Assembly: GCF_036365525.1 (NCBI RefSeq)
Contig: NC_090397.1
Span: forward strand, 42,413,679-42,477,678
Source: Heterodontus francisci
Taxonomy: Eukaryota
Length of the DNA stretch: 64,000 nt
Reading direction: 5' to 3'
A program made the position numbers and the translations under genes. Of the stretch, positions 8,140 through 63,790 are shown piece by piece (within the stretch, counting starts at the first letter, position 1; the number at the start of each line of letters is the position of its first letter). A model generated the notes under the pieces. The model saw only the letters and a list, made by a program, of their open reading frames with translations, searched no databases and had not been told where the DNA came from.

Positions 8140-8259
8140 CTTATTGACAGTATCCTGGATTATTGCATTTCCAATTGGTATCAGAATACCTCCAATTATC
8201 AACAACAGCGCACCAACAGTAATTCCAATACTAAGTAAAACTTTTCTGTTACAGTGCAT
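8140..8259 (-). CDS. CD36: CD36 first coding exon (120 coding nt; N-terminal Cys and transmembrane helix)
   Basis: ATG at 8259; MHCNRKVLLSIGITVGALLLIIGGILIPIGNAIIQDTVNK then GT donor in phase 0; matches CD36 MGCDRN..GGILMPVGD.LIQKTIKK and joins in frame to 6353. Confidence 0.93.
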
Positions 8260-12475: not shown

Positions 12476-12519
12476 AAAAATAAACGATTTTGTCAGCGCT
12501 TGAGACGTTCTTTAATCAG

Positions 12520-12789
12520 GGACACTTTCACCCCGCAGGATGGGCGGACACTCTTTCAACGTGGACACTTTCACCCCGCAGGATGAGCGGACACTCTTTC
12601 ATCGTGGACACTTCCGCCCCGCAGGATGGGCGGACACTCTTTCATCGAGGACACTTCCGCCCCGCAGGATGGTCGGACACTCTTTCAACTTGGACACTTC
12701 CGCCCCGCAGAACGGGCGGACTACTTTTCATCGTGAACACTGCGGGGCGGATATTCTTTCATCGCGGATACTTCCGCCCCGCAGAATGG
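12520..12789 (+). repeat. 43-bp tandem array (5 full, 1 deleted, 1 partial unit) at the SAYSD1 promoter and start
   Basis: Units start at 12520, 12563, 12606, 12649, 12692, 12735 and 12766; consensus GGACACTTCCGCCCCGCAGGATGGGCGGACACTCTTTCATCGT, containing ETS (CACTTCCG) and GC-box (CCGCCCC, GGGCGG) motifs. Confidence 0.9.
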
Positions 12790-13080: not shown

Positions 13081-15975
13081 CCACCCCTTTCATCCCCATC
13101 CCCCCCCCCCCTTTCATCCCCCCCCCCTTTCATCCCCCCCCCCTTTCATCCCCATCCCCCCCCCCTTTCATCCCCATCCCCCCCCCCTTTCATCCCCATC
13201 CCCCCCCCTTTCATCCCCATCCCCCTCCCCTTTCATCCCCATCCCCCCCCTTTCATCCCCATCCCCCCCCCTTTCATCCCCATCCCCCCCCCTTTCATCC
13301 CCATCCCCCCCCCCTTTCATCCCCATCCCCCCCCCCTTTCATCCCCATCCCCCCCCCCTTTCATCCCCATCCCCCCCCCCTTTCATCCCCATCCCCCCCC
13401 CCTTTCATCCCCATCCCCCCCCCCTTTCATCCCCATCCCCCCCCCTTTCATCCCCATCCCCCCCCCTTTCATCCCCATCCCCCCCCCTTTCATCCCCATC
13501 CCCCCCCCCCTTTCATCCCCATCCCCCCCCTTTCATCCCCATCCCCCCCCTTTCATCCCCATCCCCCCCCCTTTCATCCCCATCCCCCCCCCTTTCATCC
13601 CCATCCCCCCCCCTTTCATCCCCATCCCCCCCCCTTTCATCCCCATCCCCCCCCTTTCATCCCCATCCCCCCCCTTTCATCCCCATCCCCCCCCTTTCAT
13701 CCCCATCCCCCCCCTTTCATCCCCATCCCCCCCCTTTCATCCCCGTCCCCCCCCTTTCATCCCCGTCCCCCCCCTTTCATCCCCGTCCCCCCCCTTTCAT
13801 CCCCGTCCCCCCCCTTTCATCCCCGTCCCCCCCCTTTCATCCCCGTCCCCCCCCTTTCATCCCCGTCCCCCCCCTTTCATCCCCGTCCCCCCCCTTTCAT
13901 CCCCGTCCCCCCCCTTTCATCCCCGTCCCCCCCCTTTCATCCCCGTCCCCCCCCTTTCATCCCCGTCCCCCCCCTTTCATCCCCGTCCCCCCCCTTTCAT
14001 CCCCGTCCCCCCCCTTTCATCCCCGTCCCCCCCCTTTCATCCCCGTCCCCCCCCTTTCATCCCCGTCCCCCCCCTTTCATCCCCGTCCCCCCCCTTTCAT
14101 CCCCGTCCCCCCCCTTTCATCCCCGTCCCCCCCCTTTCATCCCCGTCCCCCCCCTTTCATCCCCGTCCCCCCCCTTTCATCCCCGTCCCCCCCCTTTCAT
14201 CCCCGTCCCCCCCCTTTCATCCCCGTCCCCCCCCTTTCATCCCCGTCCCCCCCCTTTCATCCCCGTCCCCCCCCTTTCATCCCCGTCCCCCCCCTTTCAT
14301 CCCCGTCCCCCCCCTTTCATCCCCGTCCCCCCCCTTTCATCCCCGTCCCCCCCCTTTCATCCCCGTCCCCCCCCTTTCATCCCCGTCCCCCCCCTTTCAT
14401 CCCCGTCCCCCCCCTTTCATCCCCGTCCCCCCCCTTTCATCCCCGTCCCCCCCCTTTCATCCCCGTCCCCCCCCTTTCATCCCCGTCCCCCCCCTTTCAT
14501 CCCCGTCCCCCCCCTTTCATCCCCGTCCCCCCCCTTTCATCCCCGTCCCCCCCTTTCATCCCCGTCCCCCCCCTTTCATCCCCGTCCCCCCCCTTTCATC
14601 CCCGTCCCCCCCCTTTCATCCCCGTCCCCCCCCTTTCATCCCCGTCCCCCCCCTTTCATCCCCGTCCCCCCCTTTCATCCCCGTCCCCCCCCTTTCATCC
14701 CCGTCCCCCCCCCTTTCATCCCCGTCCCCCCCCTTTCATCCCCGTCCCCCCCCCTTTCATCCCCGTCCCCCCCCCTTTCATCCCCGTCCCCCCCCCTTTC
14801 ATCCCCGTCCCCCCCCCTTTCATCCCCGTCCCCCCCCCTTTCATCCCCGTCCCCCCCCCTTTCATCCCCGTCCCCCCCCCTTTCATCCCCGTCCCCCCCC
14901 CTTTCATCCCCGTCCCCCCCCCTTTCATCCCCGTCCCCCCCCCTTTCATCCCCGTCCCCCCCCCTTTCATCCCCGTCCCCCCTCCTTTCATCCCCGTCCC
15001 CCCTCCTTTCATCCCCGTCCCCCCTCCTTTCATCCCCGTCCCCCCCCCTTTCATCCCCGTCCCCCCCCCTTTCATCCCCGTCCCCCCCCCTTTCATCCCC
15101 GTCCCCCCCCCTTTCATCCCCGTCCCCCCCCCTTTCATCCCCGTCCCCCCCCCTTTCATCCCCGTCCCCCCCCCTTTCATCCCCGTCCCCCCCCCTTTCA
15201 TCCCCGTCCCCCCCCCTTTCATCCCCGTCCCCCCCCCTTTCATCCCCGTCCCCCCCCCTTTCATCCCCGTCCCCCCCCCTTTCATCCCCGTCCCCCCCCC
15301 CTTTCATCCCCGTCCCCCCCCCTTTCATCCCCGTCCCCCCCCTTTCATCCCCGTCCCCCCCCCTTTCATCCCCGTCCCCCCCCCTTTCATCCCCGTCCCC
15401 CCCCCTTTCATCCCCGTCCCCCCCCCTTTCATCCCCGTCCCCCCCCCTTTCATCCCCGTCCCCCCCCCTTTCATCCCCGTCCCCCCCCCTTTCATCCCCG
15501 TCCCCCCCCCTTTCATCCCCGTCCCCCCCCCTTTCATCCCCGTCCCCCCCCCTTTCATCCCCGTCCCCCCCCCTTTCATCCCCGTCCCCCCCCCTTTCAT
15601 CCCCGTCCCCCCCCCTTTCATCCCCGTCCCCCCCCCTTTCATCCCCGTCCCCCCCCCCTTTCATCCCCGTCCCCCCCCCTTTCATCCCCGTCCCCCCCCT
15701 TTCATCCCCGTCCCCCCCCTTTCATCCCCGTCCCCCCCCTTTCATCCCCGTCCCCCCCCCTTTCATCCCCGTCCCCCCCTTTTCATCCCCGTCCCCCCCC
15801 TTTCATCCCCGTCCCCCCCCCTTTCATCCCCGTCCCCCCCCCTTTCATCCCCGTCCCCCCCCCTTTCATCCCCGTCCCCCCCCCTTTCATCCCCGTCCCC
15901 CCCCCTTTCATCCCCGTCCCCCCCTTTCATCCCCGTCCCCCCCTTTCATCCCCGTCCCCCCCCCCTTTCATCCCT
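13081..15975. repeat. C-rich minisatellite, unit about 20-21 bp (CCCC(A/G)T C8-9 TTTCAT), roughly 140 copies
   Basis: Read directly; 5' block has CCCCATC, remainder CCCCGTC; homogeneous 20-bp block at about 13680-14540, then 21-bp units. Confidence 0.98.
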
Positions 15976-35210: not shown

Positions 35211-36933
35211 AAAAGACTGGCAATACAGAGAATAAAGGTATGTTTCTGCTCGAAGCATTGGTTTCCCTTTTATTTTACAAATGTTTCTATTTATGATTCC
35301 CTTTATGATGTTGAAAACTTAAATCAGATTCTTCCATTTACCTTTTGTCCTTTTTATTATAATGAGGCCAGAGATAACTTCTTAACCACTGCTCACCTTG
35401 AAATTCCTCGATCTTTTGTTGATTGTCGCGGCTATGATTGGACATAATGTTCCCTCTGACTGTCGAATGTACTTGAAAACTCATTCTGTTTGTTACCATC
35501 ATTGTTACCACTGCGCTGATTCTTCAAGTGTTTGATAAATCAGTACACTGAAATCTGCGGCATTTTGTTTAATGATACCATCTTGTACGCACTTACTGTT
35601 TTACAGCCATCAGCAGACTGTGGGTACAACAATTTTTCAAATTCATAGTATCCCAGAAGCATAAGAATGTCTAATAGGTATTGTGTAAAATGATAAAATG
35701 TCAACAAATATATATGATTCTGACAAGTTCTTGGATAATGTCCCAGAATTACTAGGCAATAGGATAAGGTTTGAACATGTTAGTGATTACTTTTATTATG
35801 AGCTAAAGTTTTAAAGAAAAACCAGCAACCTAAGAAAAAAATATTTTATTTTATCATTACCGTTTTGTTGTGGTGTTACCATTGAGCAGTCAAGTCGTTG
35901 AATGAATGTAAATTTTTTTTACAGGTTCAGACAGTTTCAGCATAATACAGTGGCGATATAAGTCGAAAAGAGCAGCAAATATTATTGGGCAAAAACATAT
36001 AATTTGTTTTCTGGTTGACACTGAGTACATGTGTGAAGTTTTCCATTTCTCTCTCACGAACCTGCACTCGGCATTCATTCTCATCATCATCTAGCATTCC
36101 ATCTATGCTTTAATTATTTTGTGGAAAGTGAATACTGTTGTCCAAATAGCAACCATGACTTTTCATTGTGCCTCTTTCCTGTTTATGTTTCTATTAATTG
36201 AGTCATAAACCTTTTATGTGAGTGCCTGGTAAACTCTGTTTTGTGTGTCCAAGAACAGCAGTTCCTAAAATAATTTCCCGAGTCAATTTATATTCAGGTG
36301 GTAGCTTGGACCTGCTAATTGTGAGATGTTTACACAGGGTGAGCTGACTCTTTTCCAGTAAATATCACGTACATTCATTTAATCGTTACACTTTTTTTTC
36401 CATTTTTTTGTACGGAAGCAACAGTTAATTTGTTTTATTACTGATAGAATTAAAGTGGCTCTCTGTGTAACATCCTCATTGCTGATCATAGTTTATGCTA
36501 TGATATCACTATGGGGCATATTCGCCAATATGAGAAAAAAATGTCGGTCGAAATAAATTTCTAACACGATGTCTCTTTAATATCATTTCACATGTCAAAC
36601 GATAACTGATTCCCCCATACTGAAAGTGCATTTCTCTTTTATATTAAACCCGTGACATTTCATAAGAGAGCGTTCAGCTATTTGAACTGACAATGTTAAA
36701 GTGAAAAAGTCGTTTGTTTTCTCTAATTTAAAGTCGGTCTGACTAGCATATGAATTATAAGATTAAGTGGCCATCGTCTCAGTGGTGGGTATTGTTTTCC
36801 TTTCATTTTATTACAGGCGCCTCTGCTCTGCTGTAATTACATTTCATTCAGTGCTGGGGAACCTTGCACACAATACGGGAGCCATTCGCCAAATGCTGCA
36901 CAAGAGTTGATGTCCTTCAGTGTAAGTCAAGCC

Positions 36934-37051
36934 ATGGGCAGTGGCTGCAGCAGCAGAAGGTCTGAAGCCAGCAGAAAATCAAAAGCTATTGACAGACTAC
37001 TGCAGCAGGAAGGGCAAAAGACAACACTGGTGGTGAAGCTTCTACTGCTTG
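36934..37051 (+). CDS. GNAT3: Putative alternative first coding exon of the G-alpha gene (exon 1a)
   Basis: GCCATGG Kozak context; 118 nt; MGSGCSSRRSEASRKSKAIDRLLQQEGQKTTLVVKLLLLG; G|GTGAGT phase-1 donor, identical in size and phase to Gi/t exon 1; strong acceptor upstream at 36816/36817. Linkage to GNAT3 is inferred. Confidence 0.75.
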
Positions 37052-38269
37052 GTGAGTAGTGATTAAAGTAAAACTTTCCAACTTGAAGCATCCCTGTGGC
37101 CATCAACTTTTTGGTTGAAATAATAGGAAGAAGCAGGTAGGACAACACTTACTCCATTGGGAAAGTATGTGGGAACAAGTGATTCATTACGCTATTTATT
37201 TTTAAGCAGCTTTATGAAACAAAATACTGCACTTACTTGTGTCTACTTCAGTATATGCTAGTGTCTGAACGAATTTAAATGCAGTTATATACACTAGGTC
37301 ATTTTTCAATAATTGTCTATTTGCACACACAAATTGATATTTATATTCCCTACTAATAAAAGGGTTCCAGATTTCTGTGCTGCCCAGCTTCTTCCCAACA
37401 CCAAAGTTGTTTGAATTAGTTCCATTGAAAGATAATATTTTTGAATCAAATGGCTGAGAAGTGAATATTTGACATTGGTGTCATTATCTATAACTGATAT
37501 AAAAACAGAGTGCTGGAAATACTCAGCAGGTCAGGCAGCATCTGTGGAGAGAGAAACAGAGTTAACATTTCAGGTCTATAACTAAGTTATATAAATCTTT
37601 GTGTTATTTCTTGTAGCTCTTGAACCTGAATCAGGATTTCTGGTGTTTTTTACACAAGTGGCAAATTGTCCAGCAGCCAGCATACTGTAGGAAGGAAATA
37701 ATTTTGCATTCAGAAAAATTCATTCATAACGTGCACTTTTAAGGCCCAGGCCAACAATCTAGACTGTAAGTTATCTAGTGAGATTTATAATTATGCCTTT
37801 ACAAAGTGTAAGTTAGTTTGCAAATATGGCAAAACAAAAATTGACTGGTTTCTGACCAGTTTGAATTCGGTCAAGAGATTGGCTGCTCATCCCGGTTTAA
37901 GTACTGTATTTCTGGCAGGACTTCAGCAAAGAATAGTGAAGCAATATGGTTCCGGGGCTAGCAGTGTAGTACACAGAAATAAACCTTGGACATCATTTCA
38001 GAACTTAGCTGGGAAATTTCAGTCCAACTAAGCCAGCATCTAGCCATAGCACTGAACAAGGGCCTTGAAATTATGCTGTGAGATAATTTATTTTAAATGG
38101 GTAAACTGTTCGACTAAAGTAACAGAGAGGAGAACATCGGGCGAATTCATTAAGTGCTCAGCCACTATAGTTAGAGTTTCTAAAACTCTCAACACTGCCA
38201 TTAGTCTGGTGGAAAATCAGTGGAAACCCTGTAGAAACTATGTAAATAGTTGCGTACATATCTCTCTGA

Positions 38270-44051: not shown

Positions 44052-44169
44052 ATGGGAAGTGCAGCAAGCTCAGAAAATAAGGAATTAACTAGGAGATCTA
44101 AAGAACTGGAAAAGAAAATCCAAGAAGATGCAAAGAAAGATGCCAGGACTGTGAAGCTGTTACTGTTGG
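44052..44169 (+). CDS. GNAT3: G-alpha t3 (gustducin) canonical exon 1
   Basis: [40 protein letters not shown], 118 nt, G|GTAACT donor; transducin-type N-terminus. Confidence 0.9.
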
Positions 44170-45622: not shown

Positions 45623-47965
45623 ATAATAAAAGCAAAATACTGCGGATGCTGGAAATCTAAAATAAAAACAAGAAATGCTGGAACCACTCAGCAGGTCTGG
45701 CAGCATCTGTGAAAAGAGAAGCAGAGTTAACGTTTCGGGTCAGTGACCCTTCTTCGGAACTGACAAATATTAGAAAAGTCATAGGTTATAAGCAAGTGAG
45801 GTGGGGGTGGGGCAAGAGATAACAAAGGAGGTCTAGATTGGACCAGGCCACATAGCTGACCAAAAGGTCACGGAGCAAAGGCAAACAATATGTTAATGGT
45901 GTGTTGAAAGACAAAGCATTAGTACAGATTCGGTGTTAATGCACTGAATATTGAACAGCAGCAAGTGCAAACCTGAAAAAAAACAGTGGGTAAGCAAACT
46001 GAACAAATTAAGATGAAATGAAATAAATGCAAAAAAAACGATTGTAAAAAATGTAAAAAAAGAATGTAAAAAAAAAGGAAGAAAAAATAACTAAATGGGG
46101 GGCTGTCATGCTCTGAAATTATTGAACTCAATGTTCAGTCCGACAGGCTGTAGTGTGCCTAATCGGTAGATGAGATGCTGTTCCTCGAGCTTGCGTTGAT
46201 GTTCACTGGAACACTGCAGCAATCCCAGGACAGAGATGTGAGCATGAGAGCAGGGCAGAGTGTTGAAATGGCAAGCAACCGGAAGCTCAGGGTCCTGCTT
46301 GCGGACTGAGCGGAGATGTTCCGCAAAGCGGTCACCCAGTCTGCGCTTGGTCTCCCCAATGTAGAGGAGACCACACTGTGAGCAGCGAATACAGTATACT
46401 ACATTGAAAGAAGTACAAGTAAATCGCTGCTTCACCTGAAAGGAGTGTTTGGGGCCTGGTATAGTGAGGAGAGAAGAGGTAAATGGGCAGGTATTACACC
46501 TCCTGCGATTGCAGGGGAAGGTGCCATGGGACGGGGACGAGGTGGTGGGGGTAATGGAGGAGTGGACCAGGGTGTCGCAGAGGGAACGATCCCTTCGGAA
46601 TGCTGACAGGGGAAGGGAGGGGAAGATGTGACTGGTAGTGGCATCACGCTGGAGGTGGCAGAAATGGCGGAGGATGATCCTTTGGATATGGAGGCTGATG
46701 GGGTGAAAAGTGAGAACAAGGGGAACCCTGTCACGGTTCTGGGAGGGAGGGGAAGGGGTGAGGGTAGAGGTGCGGGGAATGGGCCGGACACGGTTGAGGG
46801 CCCTGTGAACCACAGTGGGGGGAAATCCTCGGTTGAAGAAAAAGGAGGTCATATCAGAAGCACCGTCATGGAAGGTAGCATCATCAGAGCAGATGCGTCG
46901 GAGACGGAGAAACTGGGAGAATGGAATGGAGTCCTTACAGGAGGTAGGGTGTGAAGAAGTGTAGTCGAGGTAGCTGTGGGTGTCGGCGGGCTTATAATGG
47001 ATATTAGTAGACAACCTATCCCCAGAGATGGAGACAGAGAAGTCGAGGAAGGGAAGGGAAGTGTCAGAGATGGACCATGTAAAGGTGAGAGAAGGGTGGA
47101 AATTGGAAGCAAAGTTGATAAAGTTTTCCAGTGCGGAAAACTGGAATACGACAACACCATACGACAACAGCACCACCCTTGTCTGCAGGTTTGATGACCA
47201 TGTCGGGGTTAGACCTGAGAGAACGGAGTGCCTCAAGTTCAGAGGGGGACAGGTTAGAGTGAGTGAGGGGGGCAGAGAAATTGAGATGACCAATCTCTCG
47301 CCGACAGTTTTCAATGAAGAGATCAAGAGTGGGTAAAAGGCCAGGGGGAGGGGTCCAGGTAGAGGGAGAATGCTGAGGCGGGTGAATGGGTCTGCTGGTC
47401 GGGGGGAGGACTCCTGGTCAAAGAAGTGAGCCCGGAGGCGGAGGCGACGGAAGAAGAGCTCAACGTCATGCCGAGCGCGAAATTCATTGAGGTGGGGGCA
47501 TAAGGGGATAAAACTGAGACCTTTGCTGAGTACAGAACGCTCAGCATCAGAGAGGGGGAGGTCAGAGGGTGTAGTGAATACACGGCAAGGGGTCAGATCA
47601 GAAGGGGTGGGGTCAGAGGGAAGTGAAGCGGAAGGAGGATCTGGAGGGGCATTAGTCCCCATCAGCTGCTGGAGCTTGCATTCCTTAACAACTGAAAGGA
47701 AGAAAAAATGTTTTTTGTTAATGCGTCGGATGAGACGAAAGATGAAATGAAACTGCGGAGTAGAACAGCTTTGAGATAAGGTAAGGCGGTGCTGCTGGAG
47801 AGAGAGGTCCAGTGTGTGCATGTGGCGGCGCATAGCACTGAGTGTGGATCTCAGGATGCGGCGAGAGTAGCAGTCTGAGGAACGTTGTATTTCTCGGAGA
47901 TACCTGTGATCCTGGGTGGTTTCAAAGCATGATGGGTGAAACTGCAGTTGGAATCCACGTGGAAT
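45623..47965 (-). mobile_element. Penelope-like element with an internal RT deletion and complete GIY-YIG domain
   Basis: ORF 46106-47833: LSKGLSFIP, LPFLD, IHYKP, IPFSQFLRLRRICS, NVVYCIRC..YIGET..EH; most of the RT core is missing near 47150; hammerhead variant CCGAAGA at about 45757-45725. Confidence 0.92.
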
Positions 47966-50164
47966 GGCATGTCCAATTTGCTAGATTAGTGCTGCTTTGA
48001 TCACCTCTGCCACTTAGACTACTGGAACTGTGATTTATTGCTCCAAGATCAATTTCCCTGAAACAAAGACTTCTTTTTACTGAGCTTTGTAGATTTATTG
48101 AGCTAATGTAAAAATAATTATCTGTCAGACATTCTAGCTGCCGGAAAATTTCCTGTTAAATGGAATTGAATTTTTGAAAGCCGTTTAATGTTTTTATCGA
48201 TTCACTGATCTCTGGTCTCTTAATTGCGTCAATTGCTAATTTTAACATCTCTGCTCTCTTAACAGCATCAATCGCCAATTTTAACATCGATCCAAATATA
48301 TCTTTCTTTTGGAATTTATGTTGATAAATCTAGTATATTTAATTCTGCATAAATAGGATAGTACGTCAGTAAGTATTTAGTTGAAGGAATAAATGTAAAA
48401 TGGTCTTTTTAAAGAGGTAAGACGACTCTTAGAGACTATGTAGCAGGTCTAAATTTAAAGCCAGGGATATCAGAGAAATGAGTTATCAAATTGTAACGTC
48501 CTCCAAATCTTGCATTAAGCTTTTAATATAATCCCCTTGCAAAATACAGGGTGCATGCTTTGAAATTAATTTTCCCACCAATGTCTGAAAACAACTCCAA
48601 CCTAGAAGCTTTCAATGAGCTCGGGTGCCTGCAGCCACACATACTGTCCATATCATACCCAGGAATGACTTTAGAAAACAAGATAAATAATCCAACTAAC
48701 AGATTTGTGGTAAATTCTTGAAACAGGTGAAATGCATGCTTTTACTAAGCAGAATAACAACTGGACAAGTACTGCAATATCATTCAATATCAATTCGAAT
48801 TGATAGCGAATATTTGTCACTAACCTGGCTGTGGCAGATTTTAATGAGCTGTCCAGCACATTTTAGTGTAAATTTGATGAGGATCTAACTAATACCAAAG
48901 ACTCAAATATGCTGTTCCAAGAATATTCAGGCCAATATTTCAATTAAAATAATAGAACCTATGGAGTAAGAAAGATCAGTCAATAAATTGCAGTCTGACA
49001 GAAAAATAATTCTTACAGGAGCTGTTGACCATTTCTTGGAGTAATTTATGGAAGATTGCTGTCAAAAGCCACAGCTTATTTTTAAAATTTTCTGATTATC
49101 TCTCCCTAAGACCACTCATGTTGAATTATCTTTTCATGGGCACTAGAAACAAATCTTAATGTATAATCATAGACAGTGAGTGTCCACAGGCTATTTGAAT
49201 GTCAGCAGCACAGCCAAACCAAATCTTGTCCTACCCCAGAGTCCCAGAGATATACATTTTCCAACAAAGGAAACCTGATAGTTGCCTTTTCCCCTATCTA
49301 GAGGACACTGAGGTCAATTGTAGCACCCACACTATGACCTTCACTATATCAGCCCAGGCCAGTGATTGAATCTGGAACTGCCTTGCTCTGTGCAGCACAG
49401 TACCACACCATATGGTGTATTTAGCCATTGTGGATTTTACACCAATTGCTTTAATGATGCAGTTAGATATAAGCAACCAAATAAAGTTATTTTAATTTCT
49501 TTAAATTTGAATGGGCATTAAGATCTTTGGAATGCTCTAGCTCCTTTATTGCAAATTGTTTTCATTACTCCCTTTTATTCCATTTAACTTTTCAATATAA
49601 TCTGTTGCATTTATCCTGATTTTCATTTTTTTGCTCATCTAGGTGAGGGTATTAGTGCTGGGGAATGGGATTCTTCCACTTTCAGATAACTAATGTCAGC
49701 AGAAAGCACTCCTCGGTCAGATGTACCACAGCCAAGCTCTATTTACCTCTGCCTCAACAACGCACCTCAGCTACAATCTCAGAAGAACAACCCCTATCAC
49801 ACCAAAATGACATTTTCTCCTTTTCCCACAACTGCCCTCCTGCAGTCTCACTGAGTGAGATTGCTAAGCAATGCCTGAATCAGGTGCAGTTTTGTGCTGG
49901 AGACTGAGACCCTCGAGGAACTGGGCTGAGACTGCTAAACTCATTTCACAAAGCATCCTTATGGGCAGCTGACATAGGAATTGAACTCAGGTCCCAGAGG
50001 GGAAAAGCCAGTTTCTAACCCATTGGAGCACCCAACTCCCCAAATCCTCCATTTTGTAGAAAATGTAGCAACTTTTAAGAACAACAAAAGAATATTTGGA
50101 CCAACAAATCTACTGCATTTTCATTGATTTTAACTCCACCTTACTGCCTTCTCAATACATTGGG

Positions 50165-50688: not shown

Positions 50689-50731
50689 GTGCCGGTGAAT
50701 CGGGTAAAAGCACAATAGTCAAACAGATGAA
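50689..50731 (+). CDS. GNAT3: G-alpha exon 2 (P-loop, 43 nt)
   Basis: TTACAG|GT GCC GGT GAA TCG GGT AAA AGC ACA ATA GTC AAA CAG ATG AA|GTAAGT = (G)AGESGKSTIVKQM(K). Confidence 0.95.
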
Positions 50732-55151: not shown

Positions 55152-55293
55152 AATTATCCATAAAGACGGTTACACAAACCAGGAATGTATGGAATTTAAG
55201 GCCATCATTTATAGCAACACAGTACAGTCCATGCTGGCAATTGTGCGGGCAATGTCCTTACTAGGAATTAACTATCAGGACCCAGCCAGGAAA
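55152..55293 (+). CDS. GNAT3: G-alpha exon 3 (142 nt)
   Basis: CATAG acceptor, GTAAGT donor; [47 protein letters not shown]; [12 protein letters not shown] and YSNT are GNAT3-like. Confidence 0.93.
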
Positions 55294-58200: not shown

Positions 58201-59531
58201 TGGCTTTCTGGAATAGAACATGTTAGTGGACAATGGTTACCTAAAGGTAAAGGTTAGAAGCTAAAAAAAAAGTCAAACCAAAAAACTACAATCTCAGTAG
58301 CCATTGTAGAATATGGCAGAAAGAAAATCTAAATTGTCATGGTATGATTACCTGCCGATGTTTTTGGAGTCTGAACCGTATGACCAGTGGAAGATTGAAG
58401 TGAATATGTGGACATGGGTTACATCTGTACCAAAGAGGAAACAGGGTATGGCCTAAGCATTGTCACTTCCTACCAGAAGTATTTTATGAGCTGGATGTCT
58501 GTCAGTTGGATATTGAGGAAAGTTTGGACCTTCTATTAAAGTTCTTGGATAAAATTTACAAGAAAGATGGTCTGTTAAGTGGCTATGAGGCATGGTCCCA
58601 TGATAGATTTCAGAAAACAGATGGACTTTCCATGGAAGATTATATCATGGACTTTCACAGATTGTATAAAAGATTGCCAAAATTCAATTTGGGGATCCCT
58701 GGATCAGTACTAGCATTTTAAATTACCAGATTGTCCTAAGGTGTCTCATATGGACAGGCTACTGGTTCTAATTGGTGTCAGTTCTTGGAGAGGGTAACTC
58801 TGTTGGATCAGATGTCTGCTGCTTTGAAAAATATTCTTGAAGGACAGTCATTTCCTTCATGAAACAATTAGGACATTCCAAAGTGCCACAATGAATAGTG
58901 AATTCAATGATTCCCAGATTTCGGAATGGTCCAGATTCTAGATGGAGATGCCAATACAGTGGAAGGGTTAAAGACAAGCAGAATGAGGATGAAAGCACCT
59001 CAGCAGATTTGGCTATGGCAGCAGAATACAGAATTGGAACAGCAATAATCAGTGAATAAATCCAAGGAATAGGTGCTTCAGGTGTGACTCAAATTACCAT
59101 TATGCGATGACCTGCCAAAAGTGGAAAGACAGGATCCTCGAAATGACACATGATGAGAGAATTCTGAGGAAGAGGATGAAAATAATATTGAATCTGAACA
59201 ATTATATCGGTCATAAGGAGTTTTAGTCCTGTGATGAATGTGTTAGTTGCAGACTCATTTAACTATGCAGTGTTGGATAGTGCAAACTCTTCAAAGTTAT
59301 GTGGAACAGATTGGTTGAAAAGTTATCTTGATTCATTAAGCTGTGAGGATCTATACACGGTTAAGGAATATAAAAGTTCTACTTGCTTTAGGTTTGGTGA
59401 TGACAGCATATTGAGGTCAGTAAAGAGAATTGTAATTCCATGTAAAATAATTGCAGTAAGCCATTTTACAAGTACTGATATAGTATCCAGTGAGATACCT
59501 GTGCTGTTGAGTAAACCTATGAAAATGCACA

Positions 59532-59879
59532 GGGGCGGCACAGTGGCACAGTGGTTAGCACCGCAGCTGCACAGCTCCAGCGACCCGGGTTCAATTCCAG
59601 GTACTGCCTGTGTGAAGTTTGCAAGTTCTCCCTGTGTCTGCATGGGTTTCCTCCGGGTGCTCCGGTTTCCTCCCACATGCCAAAGACTTGCAGGTTGATA
59701 GGTAAATTGGCCATTATAAATTACCCCTAGGATAGGTAGGTGGTAGGGAAATATAGGGACAGGTGGGGATGTGGTAGGAATATGGAATTAGTGTAGGATT
59801 AGTATAAATGGGTGGTTGATGGTCGGCACAGACTCGGTGGGCCGAAGGGCCTGTTTCAGTGCTGTATCTCTAAAAAAAA
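59532..59879 (+). mobile_element. HE1 / V-SINE nested in the copia element
   Basis: Full length with A-tail. Confidence 0.9.
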
Positions 59880-61575
59880 GAAACTTGACAGTATGATAAG
59901 GCAATTTTTTATGGAAAGTCAGTGGATCTGTAGATCCACTAATCAGGATACTATTGTATCCCTTTAACAAAACCTGATGTTTCTTGTCAATGTTAAATAA
60001 GTATTAATGACATCAGGTGATAAGAATCAGAGACAGAAAGCAAATTGTCTTAAAGTTACATAGACAATTTGCTTACCCGACTTGTCAAAGATTAAAAATC
60101 CCTCTGAAGGATGCATGTGTGGTTGATGAGGATATGAGGCTAATATAGAAGAAATTAGTGAGAAGTGTGAAATCTGTAAAAAGTAGCAGACGTTGCCATG
60201 TGCCATTGTAAGCCTTCCATTGGCACATGACTTTAACGAGGTAGTTGCATGGACCTAAAGGTATGGGGTAAAGGCAGAAATATTTTCATTCTACATTTTT
60301 TAAAGCTGGTGACCAGATTTAGTCCTTTCTGCAATAATACTCAGTAAGGACAAAAGGGTAATCCTAGACAAAATCATAGAGAAATGGATAGAGACTAGAA
60401 TTAGGGCACCAGCAAAGGTTCTGATTGATAATAGAGGGGAATTTGCCAATGATGAGTTCAGAGACAGGTATGAAAACATGAACATCATAGTCATGAATAC
60501 CGCAGCTGAAAGTCCTTTCAGCAATGGACTCCGTGAAAGAAATCATGTGGTGATCGATAAAATGCTGCATAAACTTTTCGCTAATCAACCAGACTGCCTT
60601 GGAATGGGCAGTTCATGCACAGAATTCGCTCCCTATCAATTGGCGAAATCCCAAATTGCCTTCTGTGCTGTGCGATAGCCCTCTGCTCTATAAGGTACCA
60701 CAATTAGTTCAATTTTTTTCTACATATTTGAATGCATTATGTGCAGGGAGATGAGCTTTCATCAAGGCTGAAGTCTCAGAGAAGATTTGGAGAGCCCTCA
60801 GGCATTGTATAAGACCATTCGAGATAGAATTTAATTCAGGAGATTTGGTGTATTACAAAAGGGGGGATCATAGGAAATGGAAAGGCCCTGGTAAGGTAAT
60901 AGGTCATGATGGTAAGACAGTACTTATCAAACATGTCAATCAAACTGTTAAGGTTTATTTTTCATGATTAATTGAAATTAATTACGAAATCTCAGACTCT
61001 GAGCAGCTGATGGAAGTAAACGAGGCACCTTGCACCTCAAGTGCTCATGTGTTTTGTGATGAAGGTCCTGAAGAACAGAGCATGGCAGATCAAGGGCTGG
61101 GTAGTGGTAATATGAGTGATCATGATGCACAGAACAGTGCTATCGCATCCACAGGCAAATTGCCCAGAGTGGGTTACTCGGGTGACGTATATTCCAGAGG
61201 GGTCTAATGAACAAAGGGCTGTGACAATTGAGGGACGTGCAGGAAAAGCTACTGACAAGATTAAATATCGGTTGACTGTTCAGGATGATGGCCAAGAAGT
61301 GAGGTCCATGGATTGGCAGAATGGGGTGAAAGAGTGTAACGTAAGAAAACACAATGTAAGTACTGATTGTGGGTCCAGAAGTGACTGCTGTATCGGGAAA
61401 CAATCGTGTACCAAGGAAAGACTCTCTGATCGTGCAAAAGGGAGATCTCGCAGTAATAGTCACTACAGACAGAAAATTGAAGTAGAGGCCATAGCCTGAA
61501 TAGATTACACAATGTAATAAAGACTCAGAACTGTCTTAACAGAACCAGAAGCAGAAGTCCTCATTTTTAAAAAAT

Positions 61576-61827
61576 TTATTTAGAGATACAGCACTGAAAC
61601 AGGCCCTTCGGCCCACCGAGTCTGTGCCGACCAACAACCACCCATTTATACTAACCCTGCAGTAATCCCATGTTCCCCATCACTTACCTATACTAGGGGC
61701 AATTTACAACGGCCAATTTACCTATCACCTGCAAGTCTTTTGGATGTGGGAGGAAACCGGAGCACCCGGCGAAAACCCATGCAGACACAGGGAGAACTTG
61801 CAAACTCCGCACAGGCAGTACCCAGAA
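61576..61827 (-). mobile_element. 5'-truncated HE1 / V-SINE nested in the copia element
   Basis: Reverse complement of the HE1 3' two-thirds. Confidence 0.85.
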
Positions 61828-63024
61828 TGATTGTTAGGTTTTGGTGGCTGCCAATAAACTTGAGAAAAAGCTAATGAGAAGCAAAACAAAAGGAATTGGA
61901 TAGTTGGAGAGAGCTTGGAATTTATTCTGACGTACCAGATAAGGTGTCAACCAGCCTGTCACCCCAGGTGGATTTGTACTGAAATAGTGCTTGCAGATGG
62001 GACTTATGAGGCCAAAGCTAGGCTAGTTGCTAGGGGTTTTGAAGTGTGACTGGGTGATGCTGATGCTGGAGTGGACTCTTCCACAGCTGGGAAAGTAATC
62101 TTGAAAATCTTTTAGCTCTTTTGGCCACATATTCATGGGAGTGCAGATCAATCGACATAAAAGCCATGTTTCTGAAGGGTGATGCTCTTCAAAAGGAAGT
62201 GTTTCTGAAAGCACCCAAAGAGGCAGCAGATGCAGAAAGAAAACAATGGAAATTAAACAAATGCTTCTATGGCCTGAATGATGCTCCCAGGGTGTGGTAT
62301 ATTTTGGTGAGATCTGTTTTGCTGAAAATAGGTTGTGTTCAACTAAGAGCAAGCCCCGCAATGTTTTATTGGCATCATAAAGGTAAACTTTCAGGCATCT
62401 TCATGATGTATGTCGATGACTTCTTATGGAATGGTACTGCAGAATTTGAGAAATGTATTATTGATATTAGATGGAATTTAAATTTGGAGTCAAGCTTGTG
62501 GGGCTTTAAAATATATTGGTTTAGATATAAAGCAGACTTGTTCTAGAGTAACTTTAATTCAACAATCCTATTTAGAGAGTGCTACTTCCATCCCGGTTAG
62601 TTGTACTAGGTACTAACAGAAAGATAATGTTATATCTAAAGAAGAGACTGAGTAATTGCGAAGCTTGATTGGTCAGTTGAACTGGTTGGACACTTCGACT
62701 AGACCAGATGCTAGTTCTGATGTGTTGGAGTTAAATACTACAATGAAAGACCCTAAAGTCGAGCATGTTTTAAAGGTGAATAAAACATAAATAAGCATTT
62801 CTCTAGATTTAATTTTTTAATGTTCCCATCCTTAGGTGACCCAAAGAACATGAAACTAGTTATTTTTAGCAGCATCAGAGCCACAACCCTGGTGCACTCA
62901 CTCAGAGTTCCATGGATTTATAGAAACTGGCATATGTGTCCAAACAATTTCCAAACCATCTTGGGGTGAATCAGTTTGCAATGTTGATTGCCTTAAAGTA
63001 TTAATTTTATGGGGAAACCACTGA

Positions 63025-63632: not shown

Positions 63633-63790
63633 GCTGATGCGCAACACCTTTTTAATCTGGCTGATTCAGTAGAGGAAGGGAGTTTGCCAACAGAACTTGT
63701 AGAAATCATTGGTAGGCTTTGGAATGATCCAGGAATTCAGGCCTGCTTTGAGAGAGCTTCAGAGTATCAGCTCAATGATTCTGCCTCATA
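63633..63790 (+). CDS. GNAT3: G-alpha exon 4 (158 nt); the gene continues beyond the window
   Basis: CTACAG acceptor, TA|GTAAGT donor; [52 protein letters not shown](Y). Confidence 0.93.

Follow-up and report, generated by a model that had tools for sequence, protein, structure and literature searches.

The GNAT3 locus of the shark Heterodontus francisci raises the question of whether one gustducin gene can begin with either of two first coding exons. The window, by which we mean the whole analysed stretch of 64,000 nucleotides of contig NC_090397.1, contains an exon (exon 1a) located upstream of the canonical coding exon 1 (exon 1b), and an initial annotation had described it as a second, Gi/o-like first exon of the gene. 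Exon 1a is a real, conserved second first exon. Its position in the gene, its history in sharks, the N-terminus it encodes and its age are considered below.

Two first coding exons and one GNAT3 body

The coding features of the window are the following:

36934..37051, plus strand, GNAT3 exon 1a, the upstream alternative coding exon 1 (118 nt), with orthologues in two catshark models
44052..44169, plus strand, GNAT3 canonical coding exon 1b (118 nt), donor TGG/GTAACT
50689..50731, plus strand, GNAT3 exon 2 with the P-loop (43 nt), its acceptor being common to 1a and 1b
55152..55293, plus strand, GNAT3 exon 3 (142 nt)
63633..63790, plus strand, GNAT3 exon 4 (158 nt)
8140..8259, minus strand, first CD36 coding exon, in head-to-head orientation to GNAT3 (match to 5lgd_A, platelet glycoprotein 4, E 1.1e-4)

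The coordinates of exon 1a, its length, ATG context, donor and peptide, and its phase relative to exon 2 were all confirmed as first described. The exon encodes Met-Gly2, Cys5, Ser6, the alphaN helix and the start of beta1. It begins in a strong Kozak context (aagcc-ATG-G) and ends at the donor TTG/GTGAGT in phase 1, in the manner of G-alpha exon 1 of the Gi/Gt/Gq type, that is, after 118 coding nucleotides covering alphaN and beta1 up to KLLLLG and at a phase-1 GT donor. Exon 1b lies 7,118 nt downstream; both exons end in the same phase (1) and leave the same Gly codon to be completed by exon 2. The window contains a single GESGKST exon, so there is indeed no separate P-loop exon between 1a and 1b.

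When 13 G-alpha exon-1 peptides encoded elsewhere in the H. francisci genome were made into a search profile, with 1a left out, exon 1a scored 39.1 bits (E 7e-10), whereas the best background score among 18,580 open frames was 7.0 bits; the resemblance is thus not due to chance. Exon 1a can be aligned with exon 1 over all 40 codons, at the exact length, and both protein and DNA searches found it as a single copy in the H. francisci genome. No duplicate exon 1 was found near exon 1 of GNAT1 or GNAT2 in the same genome (about 80 kb upstream and 20 kb downstream).

Exons 5–8 of GNAT3 lie within about 36 kb past the window end. A tblastn search of the window and the 100 kb downstream revealed only one set of exons 2–8, which matches the NCBI model labelled Heterodontus francisci; this model uses exon 1b, to which it is identical at 40/40 residues. 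The gene is intact and has a single body. No other plus-strand G-alpha body was found within 100 kb, which makes exon 2 of GNAT3 the sole splice partner in reach of exon 1a. Splicing to another gene beyond the window had been put forward earlier as a competing outcome, and the 100 kb downstream contain no second exon 2–8 set.

The assignment of the gene to gustducin is borne out by both flanks of the locus and by the tree of the gene body. CD36, which adjoins GNAT3 at the human locus, serves as a synteny marker outside the gene, upstream and on the opposite strand. About 233 kb downstream there is a GNAI exon 1, convergent with GNAT3 and on the opposite strand, which we take to be GNAI1 from its sequence and position. 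GNAT3 and GNAI1 are a known gene pair (PMC3826523). In the tree based on exons 2–8, the gene falls within GNAT3 and not within GNAT1, GNAT2 or GNATX; the shark GNAT3 clade has a support of 100/100, and the GNAT3 rows, 12 in all, cluster together (79/95). Canonical GNAT3 genes of sharks, coelacanth and amniotes share with the present gene the CD36/GNAT3/GNAI1 locus, exons 2–8, and the length and phase of exon 1; their exon 1 differs from 1a, the identity between 1a and 1b being 18/40 residues.

Several other features of the window can be noted. Two repeat-free, mildly CpG-enriched stretches (35215–37489, around exon 1a, and 47501–48500, in the intron before exon 2) have observed/expected ratios of 0.54–0.69 against a median of 0.23 and are candidate regulatory regions. 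Between CD36 and exon 1a, a 21-bp C-rich tandem unit, G-rich on the opposite strand, is repeated about 140 times with 97% identity (13084–15974), and a 43-bp tandem array occupies positions 12509–12741. Intron 3 of GNAT3 (about 58300–62900) contains decayed retrotransposon-like coding fragments with integrase-like and reverse-transcriptase-like frames.

Conservation of exon 1a in other sharks

The N-terminus of the Scyliorhinus canicula model XP_038667429.1 is identical to exon 1a at 37/40 residues, and that of the S. torazame model XP_072327483.1 at 35/40. Both catshark entries, which are automatic NCBI gene models and were examined as proteins, run directly from the 1a-type N-terminus into the GNAT3 P-loop. 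An exon of the 1a type is thus present in the models of other species, which was the point of the orthologue search proposed earlier. The two models are named in generic transducin-like terms, begin at a Met further upstream and have no 1b isoform, so the two-exon arrangement is invisible in them; their use as catshark reference GNAT3 proteins calls for caution, since their N-terminus is atypical.

N-termini of the 1a type were found in these two catshark proteins only among 176 scorable proteins (204 fetched), the next best reaching 20/40. With the 40 residues of 1a as the query, one protein was identified among 41 candidates of 71–2000 residues, that of S. canicula (93% identity), and the S. 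torazame model was found in the cluster of this protein. The same query gave no candidate among annotated proteins of 22–70 residues, and no match at E<=0.001 among 1.84 billion representatives; all these searches cover annotated proteins and are insensitive at such a query length. A search of the ESM Atlas yielded short clusters without names and, at 0.76, a weak lead to G-alpha.

Exon 1a is as similar to its S. canicula counterpart (92.5% identity) as are exons 2–8 (91.7%; 91.4% for exons 2–8 in S. torazame). The in-frame stretch directly upstream of it matches the S. torazame model at only 13/24 positions with two gaps, compared with 35/40 for the exon (Fisher p 0.006). The upstream frame is open for 60 codons, and both gaps are in frame, as they can only be in an alignment built on translations. 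In a neutral simulation, the probability of retaining at least 36/39 residues without a stop was 0.40 at 0.05, 0.04 at 0.10 and 0.003 at 0.15 substitutions per site, and at 0.25–0.4 substitutions per site none of 20,000 runs did so. The identity of the upstream frame corresponds to about 0.3 substitutions per site, a crude yardstick of neutral divergence that rests on 24 gap-aligned codons; at 0.05 substitutions per site, the conservation of 1a would be unremarkable. The plain reading of these comparisons is that exon 1a is under coding constraint, and it is probably functional. Exon 1b, for its part, is identical at 37/40 residues to its counterparts in white shark and sawshark, and at 32–37/40 between orders. 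As 1a and 1b each differ by three residues from the nearest orthologue in another order, constraint has apparently acted on both in the H. francisci lineage.

GNAT3 models were obtained for seven sharks (nine proteins); two of these species carry 1a, five, H. francisci included, carry 1b, and none carries both. The 1b form is absent from the GNAT3 models of both catsharks. In the exon 2–8 tree, the catsharks group with Mustelus (99/92), followed by lamniforms, then H. francisci, and then the sawshark. With 1a in H. francisci and the catsharks and 1b in H. francisci, Mustelus, lamniforms and sawshark, it follows that, on these gene models, the two exons were present together from the ancestor of H. 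francisci and catsharks down to that of catsharks and Mustelus.

This history might have ended in an exon exchange, after which each lineage uses one exon only: catsharks would have lost or silenced 1b, and in H. francisci 1a (or 1b) would be an intact but unused relic. The failure to find both forms in any one species fits such an exchange, as does the lack of a 1b model in catsharks, although 1b is far nearer to the known transducins; isoform X2 of S. canicula has no coding exon 1 at all. However, both exons are intact in H. francisci, each 3/40 residues away from an orthologue in another shark order. The three changes between 1a and S. canicula are all conservative (K/R, Q/E and T/S), while an exon unused since the split of the orders would be expected to decay like the upstream frame. 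We consider the exchange unlikely.

Some observations on shark GNAT3 in general were made during this comparison. Among cartilaginous fishes, annotated GNAT3 proteins were seen for the seven sharks only; the best 120 matches included none from carpet sharks, rays, sevengill or chimaera, groups for which GNAT1 and/or GNAT2 proteins are present. This may reflect either patchy gustducin loss in cartilaginous fishes or an annotation gap. The receptor-binding C-terminus of lamniform and carcharhiniform GNAT3 is KGCGLF, as against KDCGLF, and in both catsharks Thr replaces the conserved Lys after the exon-2 Met. GNAT3 and GNAT1 are apparently located on one chromosome in both catsharks and on different chromosomes in H. 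francisci, white shark, basking shark and Mustelus; the catshark arrangement is likely a chromosome fusion.

The N-terminus encoded by exon 1a and its predicted consequences

The peptide was compared with a residue table of 49 distinct Gt and 11 Gi/o/z N-termini, from which XP_038667429.1, XP_072327483.1, XP_061428886.1, XP_006026686.1 and N-termini without MG at the 40-residue position were left out. It agrees with Gt at S3, G4, E11 and Q24, with Gi/o/z at A12, I19, D20, R21 and G27, and with neither at C5, R8–S10, L22 and T30–V33. Cys5, R8–R9, I19–D20–R21, G27 and L32–V33 occur in 0 to at most 2 of the 49 Gt N-termini. Exon 1a thus departs from the Gt type in having A-I-D-R-L at 18–22 instead of an ELEKK-type sequence, G27 instead of Ala27, L32–V33 instead of Arg/Lys32–Thr33, and Cys5. 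It also departs from the Gi/o type, where Cys3 is present in 11/11 Gi/o/z sequences; 1a has Ser3 and Cys5 instead, and none of the 49 Gt sequences has a Cys at either position. The BLOSUM scores of 1a over residues 1–33 are 61 with GNAT3-1b, 61 with GNAT2, 58 with GNAZ, 51–53 with GNAI1–3 and 37 with GNAO. The first description of the exon as Gi/o-like accordingly holds for the five Gi/o/z-type residues, but not for the four Gt-type residues, the position of the Cys or the highest BLOSUM scores, and no best tree joins 1a to GNAI or GNAO. It is better regarded as a mosaic of the two types.

Met-Gly-x-x-x-Ser is a consensus myristoylation-type motif, which together with a Cys among the first few residues characterises dually acylated membrane proteins such as Gi/o and the Src family. 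Transducins and gustducin are generally regarded as myristoylated only, with a single weak lipid anchor, unlike Gi/o. The combination of this motif with Cys5, pointed out in the initial annotation, is retained in all copies, Met-Gly-x-x-Cys-Ser being invariant in 3/3. Net charge over residues 2–10 is +2 or +3 in 1a, 0 in 1b and -1 in GNAT2, GNAI1 and GNAO. A precedent for a usable Cys at position 5 is Lck, which is myristoylated at Gly2 and then palmitoylated at Cys3/Cys5 (PMC7655920); like 1a it has Gly2 and Cys5, but it is a kinase and also has Cys3, which makes the analogy a functional one only.

In the helix, residues 12, 16, 19, 20, 23 and 27 of 1a keep Gi-type or family residues and fall within a 100-degree arc, which we assume to be the G-beta face of alphaN. 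The changed positions 8, 9, 26 and 30 lie on or beside the same arc, so the argument from the helix face is not a clean one. Of the 176 scorable proteins, 174 have Arg or Lys at position 32; Leu is seen there in the two 1a models alone. An AlphaFold2 model of XP_038667429.1 has a helix at 13–34 and a strand at 40–46 but is of low confidence (mean pLDDT 55, residues 1–23 below 50) and is not counted as evidence. The alphaN-beta1 hinge, to which positions 32 and 33 belong, is a main receptor contact (PMC3877993).

Taking the gene structure and the peptide together, we favour, with reasonable though not high confidence, the view that exon 1a is a conserved duplicate first exon which provides an alternative start spliced to the shared exon 2, and thereby a second gustducin, predicted to be doubly acylated and altered in its coupling. 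An upstream promoter would give a 1a–exon 2 transcript, and a downstream promoter a 1b–exon 2 transcript. A search of sequencing runs for positions 36840–37051 listed no RNA run containing the stretch (three runs taken to be RNA, share 0.00), which speaks neither for nor against such transcripts. A transcript starting upstream of 1a would skip 1b: being a first exon, 1b would be removed along with the long first intron. The product of 1a would be a second protein of 354 residues, predicted to be myristoylated at Gly2 and palmitoylated at Cys5. The two products would differ in residues 1–39 only and have the GTPase, effector and C-terminal receptor-selecting parts in common. The 1a form is predicted to have a stronger membrane anchor owing to its two lipids and to the net charge of +2 compared with 0 over residues 2–10, to go on binding G-beta-gamma by means of the residues kept along one face of the helix, and to differ in its receptor contact, as Leu32–Val33 in the hinge replaces Arg/Lys–Thr. 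Two isoforms from one GNAT3 gene, as originally suggested, are likely, given the conservation of 1a and the two catshark models that connect it to the GNAT3 body. A gustducin isoform in which the anchor, the alphaN helix and the hinge alone are altered on an identical GTPase body would amount to a natural controlled experiment on the part played by exon 1 in membrane residence and in the choice of receptor. Such an isoform also bears on the G protein choice of shark taste receptors.

The prediction of double acylation depends on where translation starts, and two features upstream of exon 1a are relevant here:

36910..36912, plus strand, in-frame upstream ATG in a weak context (T at -3 and +4), 8 codons before the exon 1a ATG
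36795..36816, plus strand, possible acceptor, a pyrimidine tract with AG (17/20 pyrimidines), the AG ending at 36816

Use of the upstream ATG would add eight residues and bury Gly2, which would abolish myristoylation of the 1a form. The acceptor-like AG suggests that exon 1a may be preceded by a non-coding leader exon as yet unseen; upstream of exon 1b there are two sites resembling it as well. It is conceivable, therefore, that 1a is expressed but its product is not doubly acylated, either because the upstream ATG, or a start still further upstream reached through the acceptor at 36816, gives an extended, non-myristoylated N-terminus similar to the XL forms of GNAS/GNAL or because Cys5 is not palmitoylated. 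The upstream Met is present in 3/3 species (in both catsharks 7 codons before the 1a-type start) and forms part of both NCBI models, the upstream frame is open with in-frame gaps, and an acceptor-like site exists. On the other hand, the context is weak for the upstream ATG and strong for the second one, conservation is poor in the upstream residues (13/24) compared with the invariant Met-Gly-x-x-Cys-Ser, and the distance from the second Met to the donor is exactly the 118 nt of the family. Such an outcome appears improbable.

It is very unlikely that 1a belongs to another gene, is a pseudo-exon kept for a regulatory reason or owes its catshark joins to prediction artefacts: its surroundings are repeat-free with CpG observed/expected 0.66 in 36501–37000 (median 0.23), as a regulatory element might be, but there is no second exon 2–8 set within 100 kb downstream, GNAI1, the G-alpha gene that follows, lies about 233 kb away on the other strand, the same join appears in two separate catshark annotations, and 1a has kept its donor site as well as its phase and reading frame.

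Age of exon 1a and comparison with known systems

On the shark gene models, the duplication that produced exon 1a dates back to the common ancestor of H. francisci and catsharks or earlier. Third codon positions of 1a and 1b match at 13/39, within the range of 7–15 found between 1a and distant paralogues; they are saturated, so 1a is not a recent copy. When GNAV is omitted, the best tree places 1a as sister to all GNAT exons (77/84); a GNAT clade excluding 1a appears in 867/1000 bootstraps, and a group of 1a with shark 1b in 0/1000. Across trees, a clade of lamprey, hagfish and gnathostome GNAT exons that excludes 1a is found in 827–963/1000 bootstraps. With GNAV included, 1a pairs with it on a near-zero branch (77/0 and 87/32), which is likely a long-branch effect. 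The trees rest on 40 columns, too few to fix the origin: a shark-only duplication is not rejected (AU p 0.36 without GNAV and 0.23–0.30 with it), nor is descent from exon 1 of GNAI, GNAO or GNAZ (AU p 0.10–0.39; GNAI 0.10, GNAO 0.14). The exon phylogeny called for earlier thus gives a partial answer, with 1a outside all GNAT exons in the best trees and these other origins compatible with the data. Possibly, the duplication preceded the divergence of the three transducin genes.

A bolder and more doubtful proposal, which we put forward tentatively, is that 1a is a relic of an ancestral transducin N-terminus predating the vertebrate genome doublings and kept in sharks as a doubly acylated gustducin with a non-basic hinge. 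The duplication would then have taken place on the GNAT stem, before the appearance of the ELEKK-type helix common to lamprey and gnathostome transducins. Exon 1a would subsequently have been lost from GNAT1, GNAT2 and the GNAT3 of bony vertebrates and retained in sharks, and a membrane-locked gustducin of this kind might be the predominant or even the sole form that catsharks have. If the age suggested by the best trees is right, 1a samples the step from a Gi-like to a transducin N-terminus.

Alternative first coding exons of G-alpha genes are known from GNAS and GNAL, where an upstream XL exon resembling exon 1 is spliced to the shared exon 2 (PMC5896119). Exon 1a is likewise an upstream alternative first coding exon and would exchange the N-terminus through the shared exon 2. 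The XL exons, however, are long and variable, and their similarity is limited to the 3' part of exon 1 (PMC5896119). Exon 1a, by contrast, is a paralogue of exon 1 in its entirety and of exactly its length (118 nt), has its own myristoylation motif, belongs to the Gt family and has so far been found in sharks only. Local duplications of G-alpha exons include exons 7–8 of GNAO and exon 4 of GNAQ/GNA11, as well as exon 6 of preGNAI and exon 5 of preGNAQ in amphioxus and exon 5 of preGNAI in tunicates (PMC5896119). Like these, 1a is a tandem exon duplicate that would be used in place of its partner and diversify one interface of a protein. Those duplicates are internal exons chosen by splicing, while 1a is a first coding exon, likely chosen by promoter, that would alter lipidation and the alphaN helix.

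No description of a second first exon in shark GNAT3, nor of any such isoform for GNAT genes, was found in the literature searched, which did not extend to subscription journals; the earlier impression that no such isoform is known agrees with this. The sections of PMC5896119 considered here mention no duplicate exon for any GNAT gene, and its supplements with curated exon annotations could bear on novelty. PMC4948711 has no mention of splicing or exon 1, and nothing relevant is contained in the passages considered of PMC13113109 and PMC12703716. XP_038667429.1 and XP_072327483.1 already contain the 1a orthologue joined to the GNAT3 body. Alternative first exons as such were already known from GNAS/GNAL, and a probable one in GNAT3 is new as far as could be found. 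The scope of the finding is one gene in some sharks and a known mechanism, with expression predicted from sequence and gene models.

Two further N-termini were encountered in the comparison. The Lethenteron reissneri GNATX model XP_061428886.1 has a different, acidic N-terminus of 71 residues with KLLLLG before the P-loop, which shares 10/40 positions with exon 1a. No similar form is listed in the P. marinus GNATX cluster. This N-terminus is possibly an independent XL-like alternative first exon. Isoform X2 of Alligator sinensis GNAT3 (XP_006026686.1) combines a Gi-like Met-Gly-Cys start with an exon 1 that is canonical in all other respects; this start may be either an artefact of the model or another way of arriving at a palmitoylatable gustducin.
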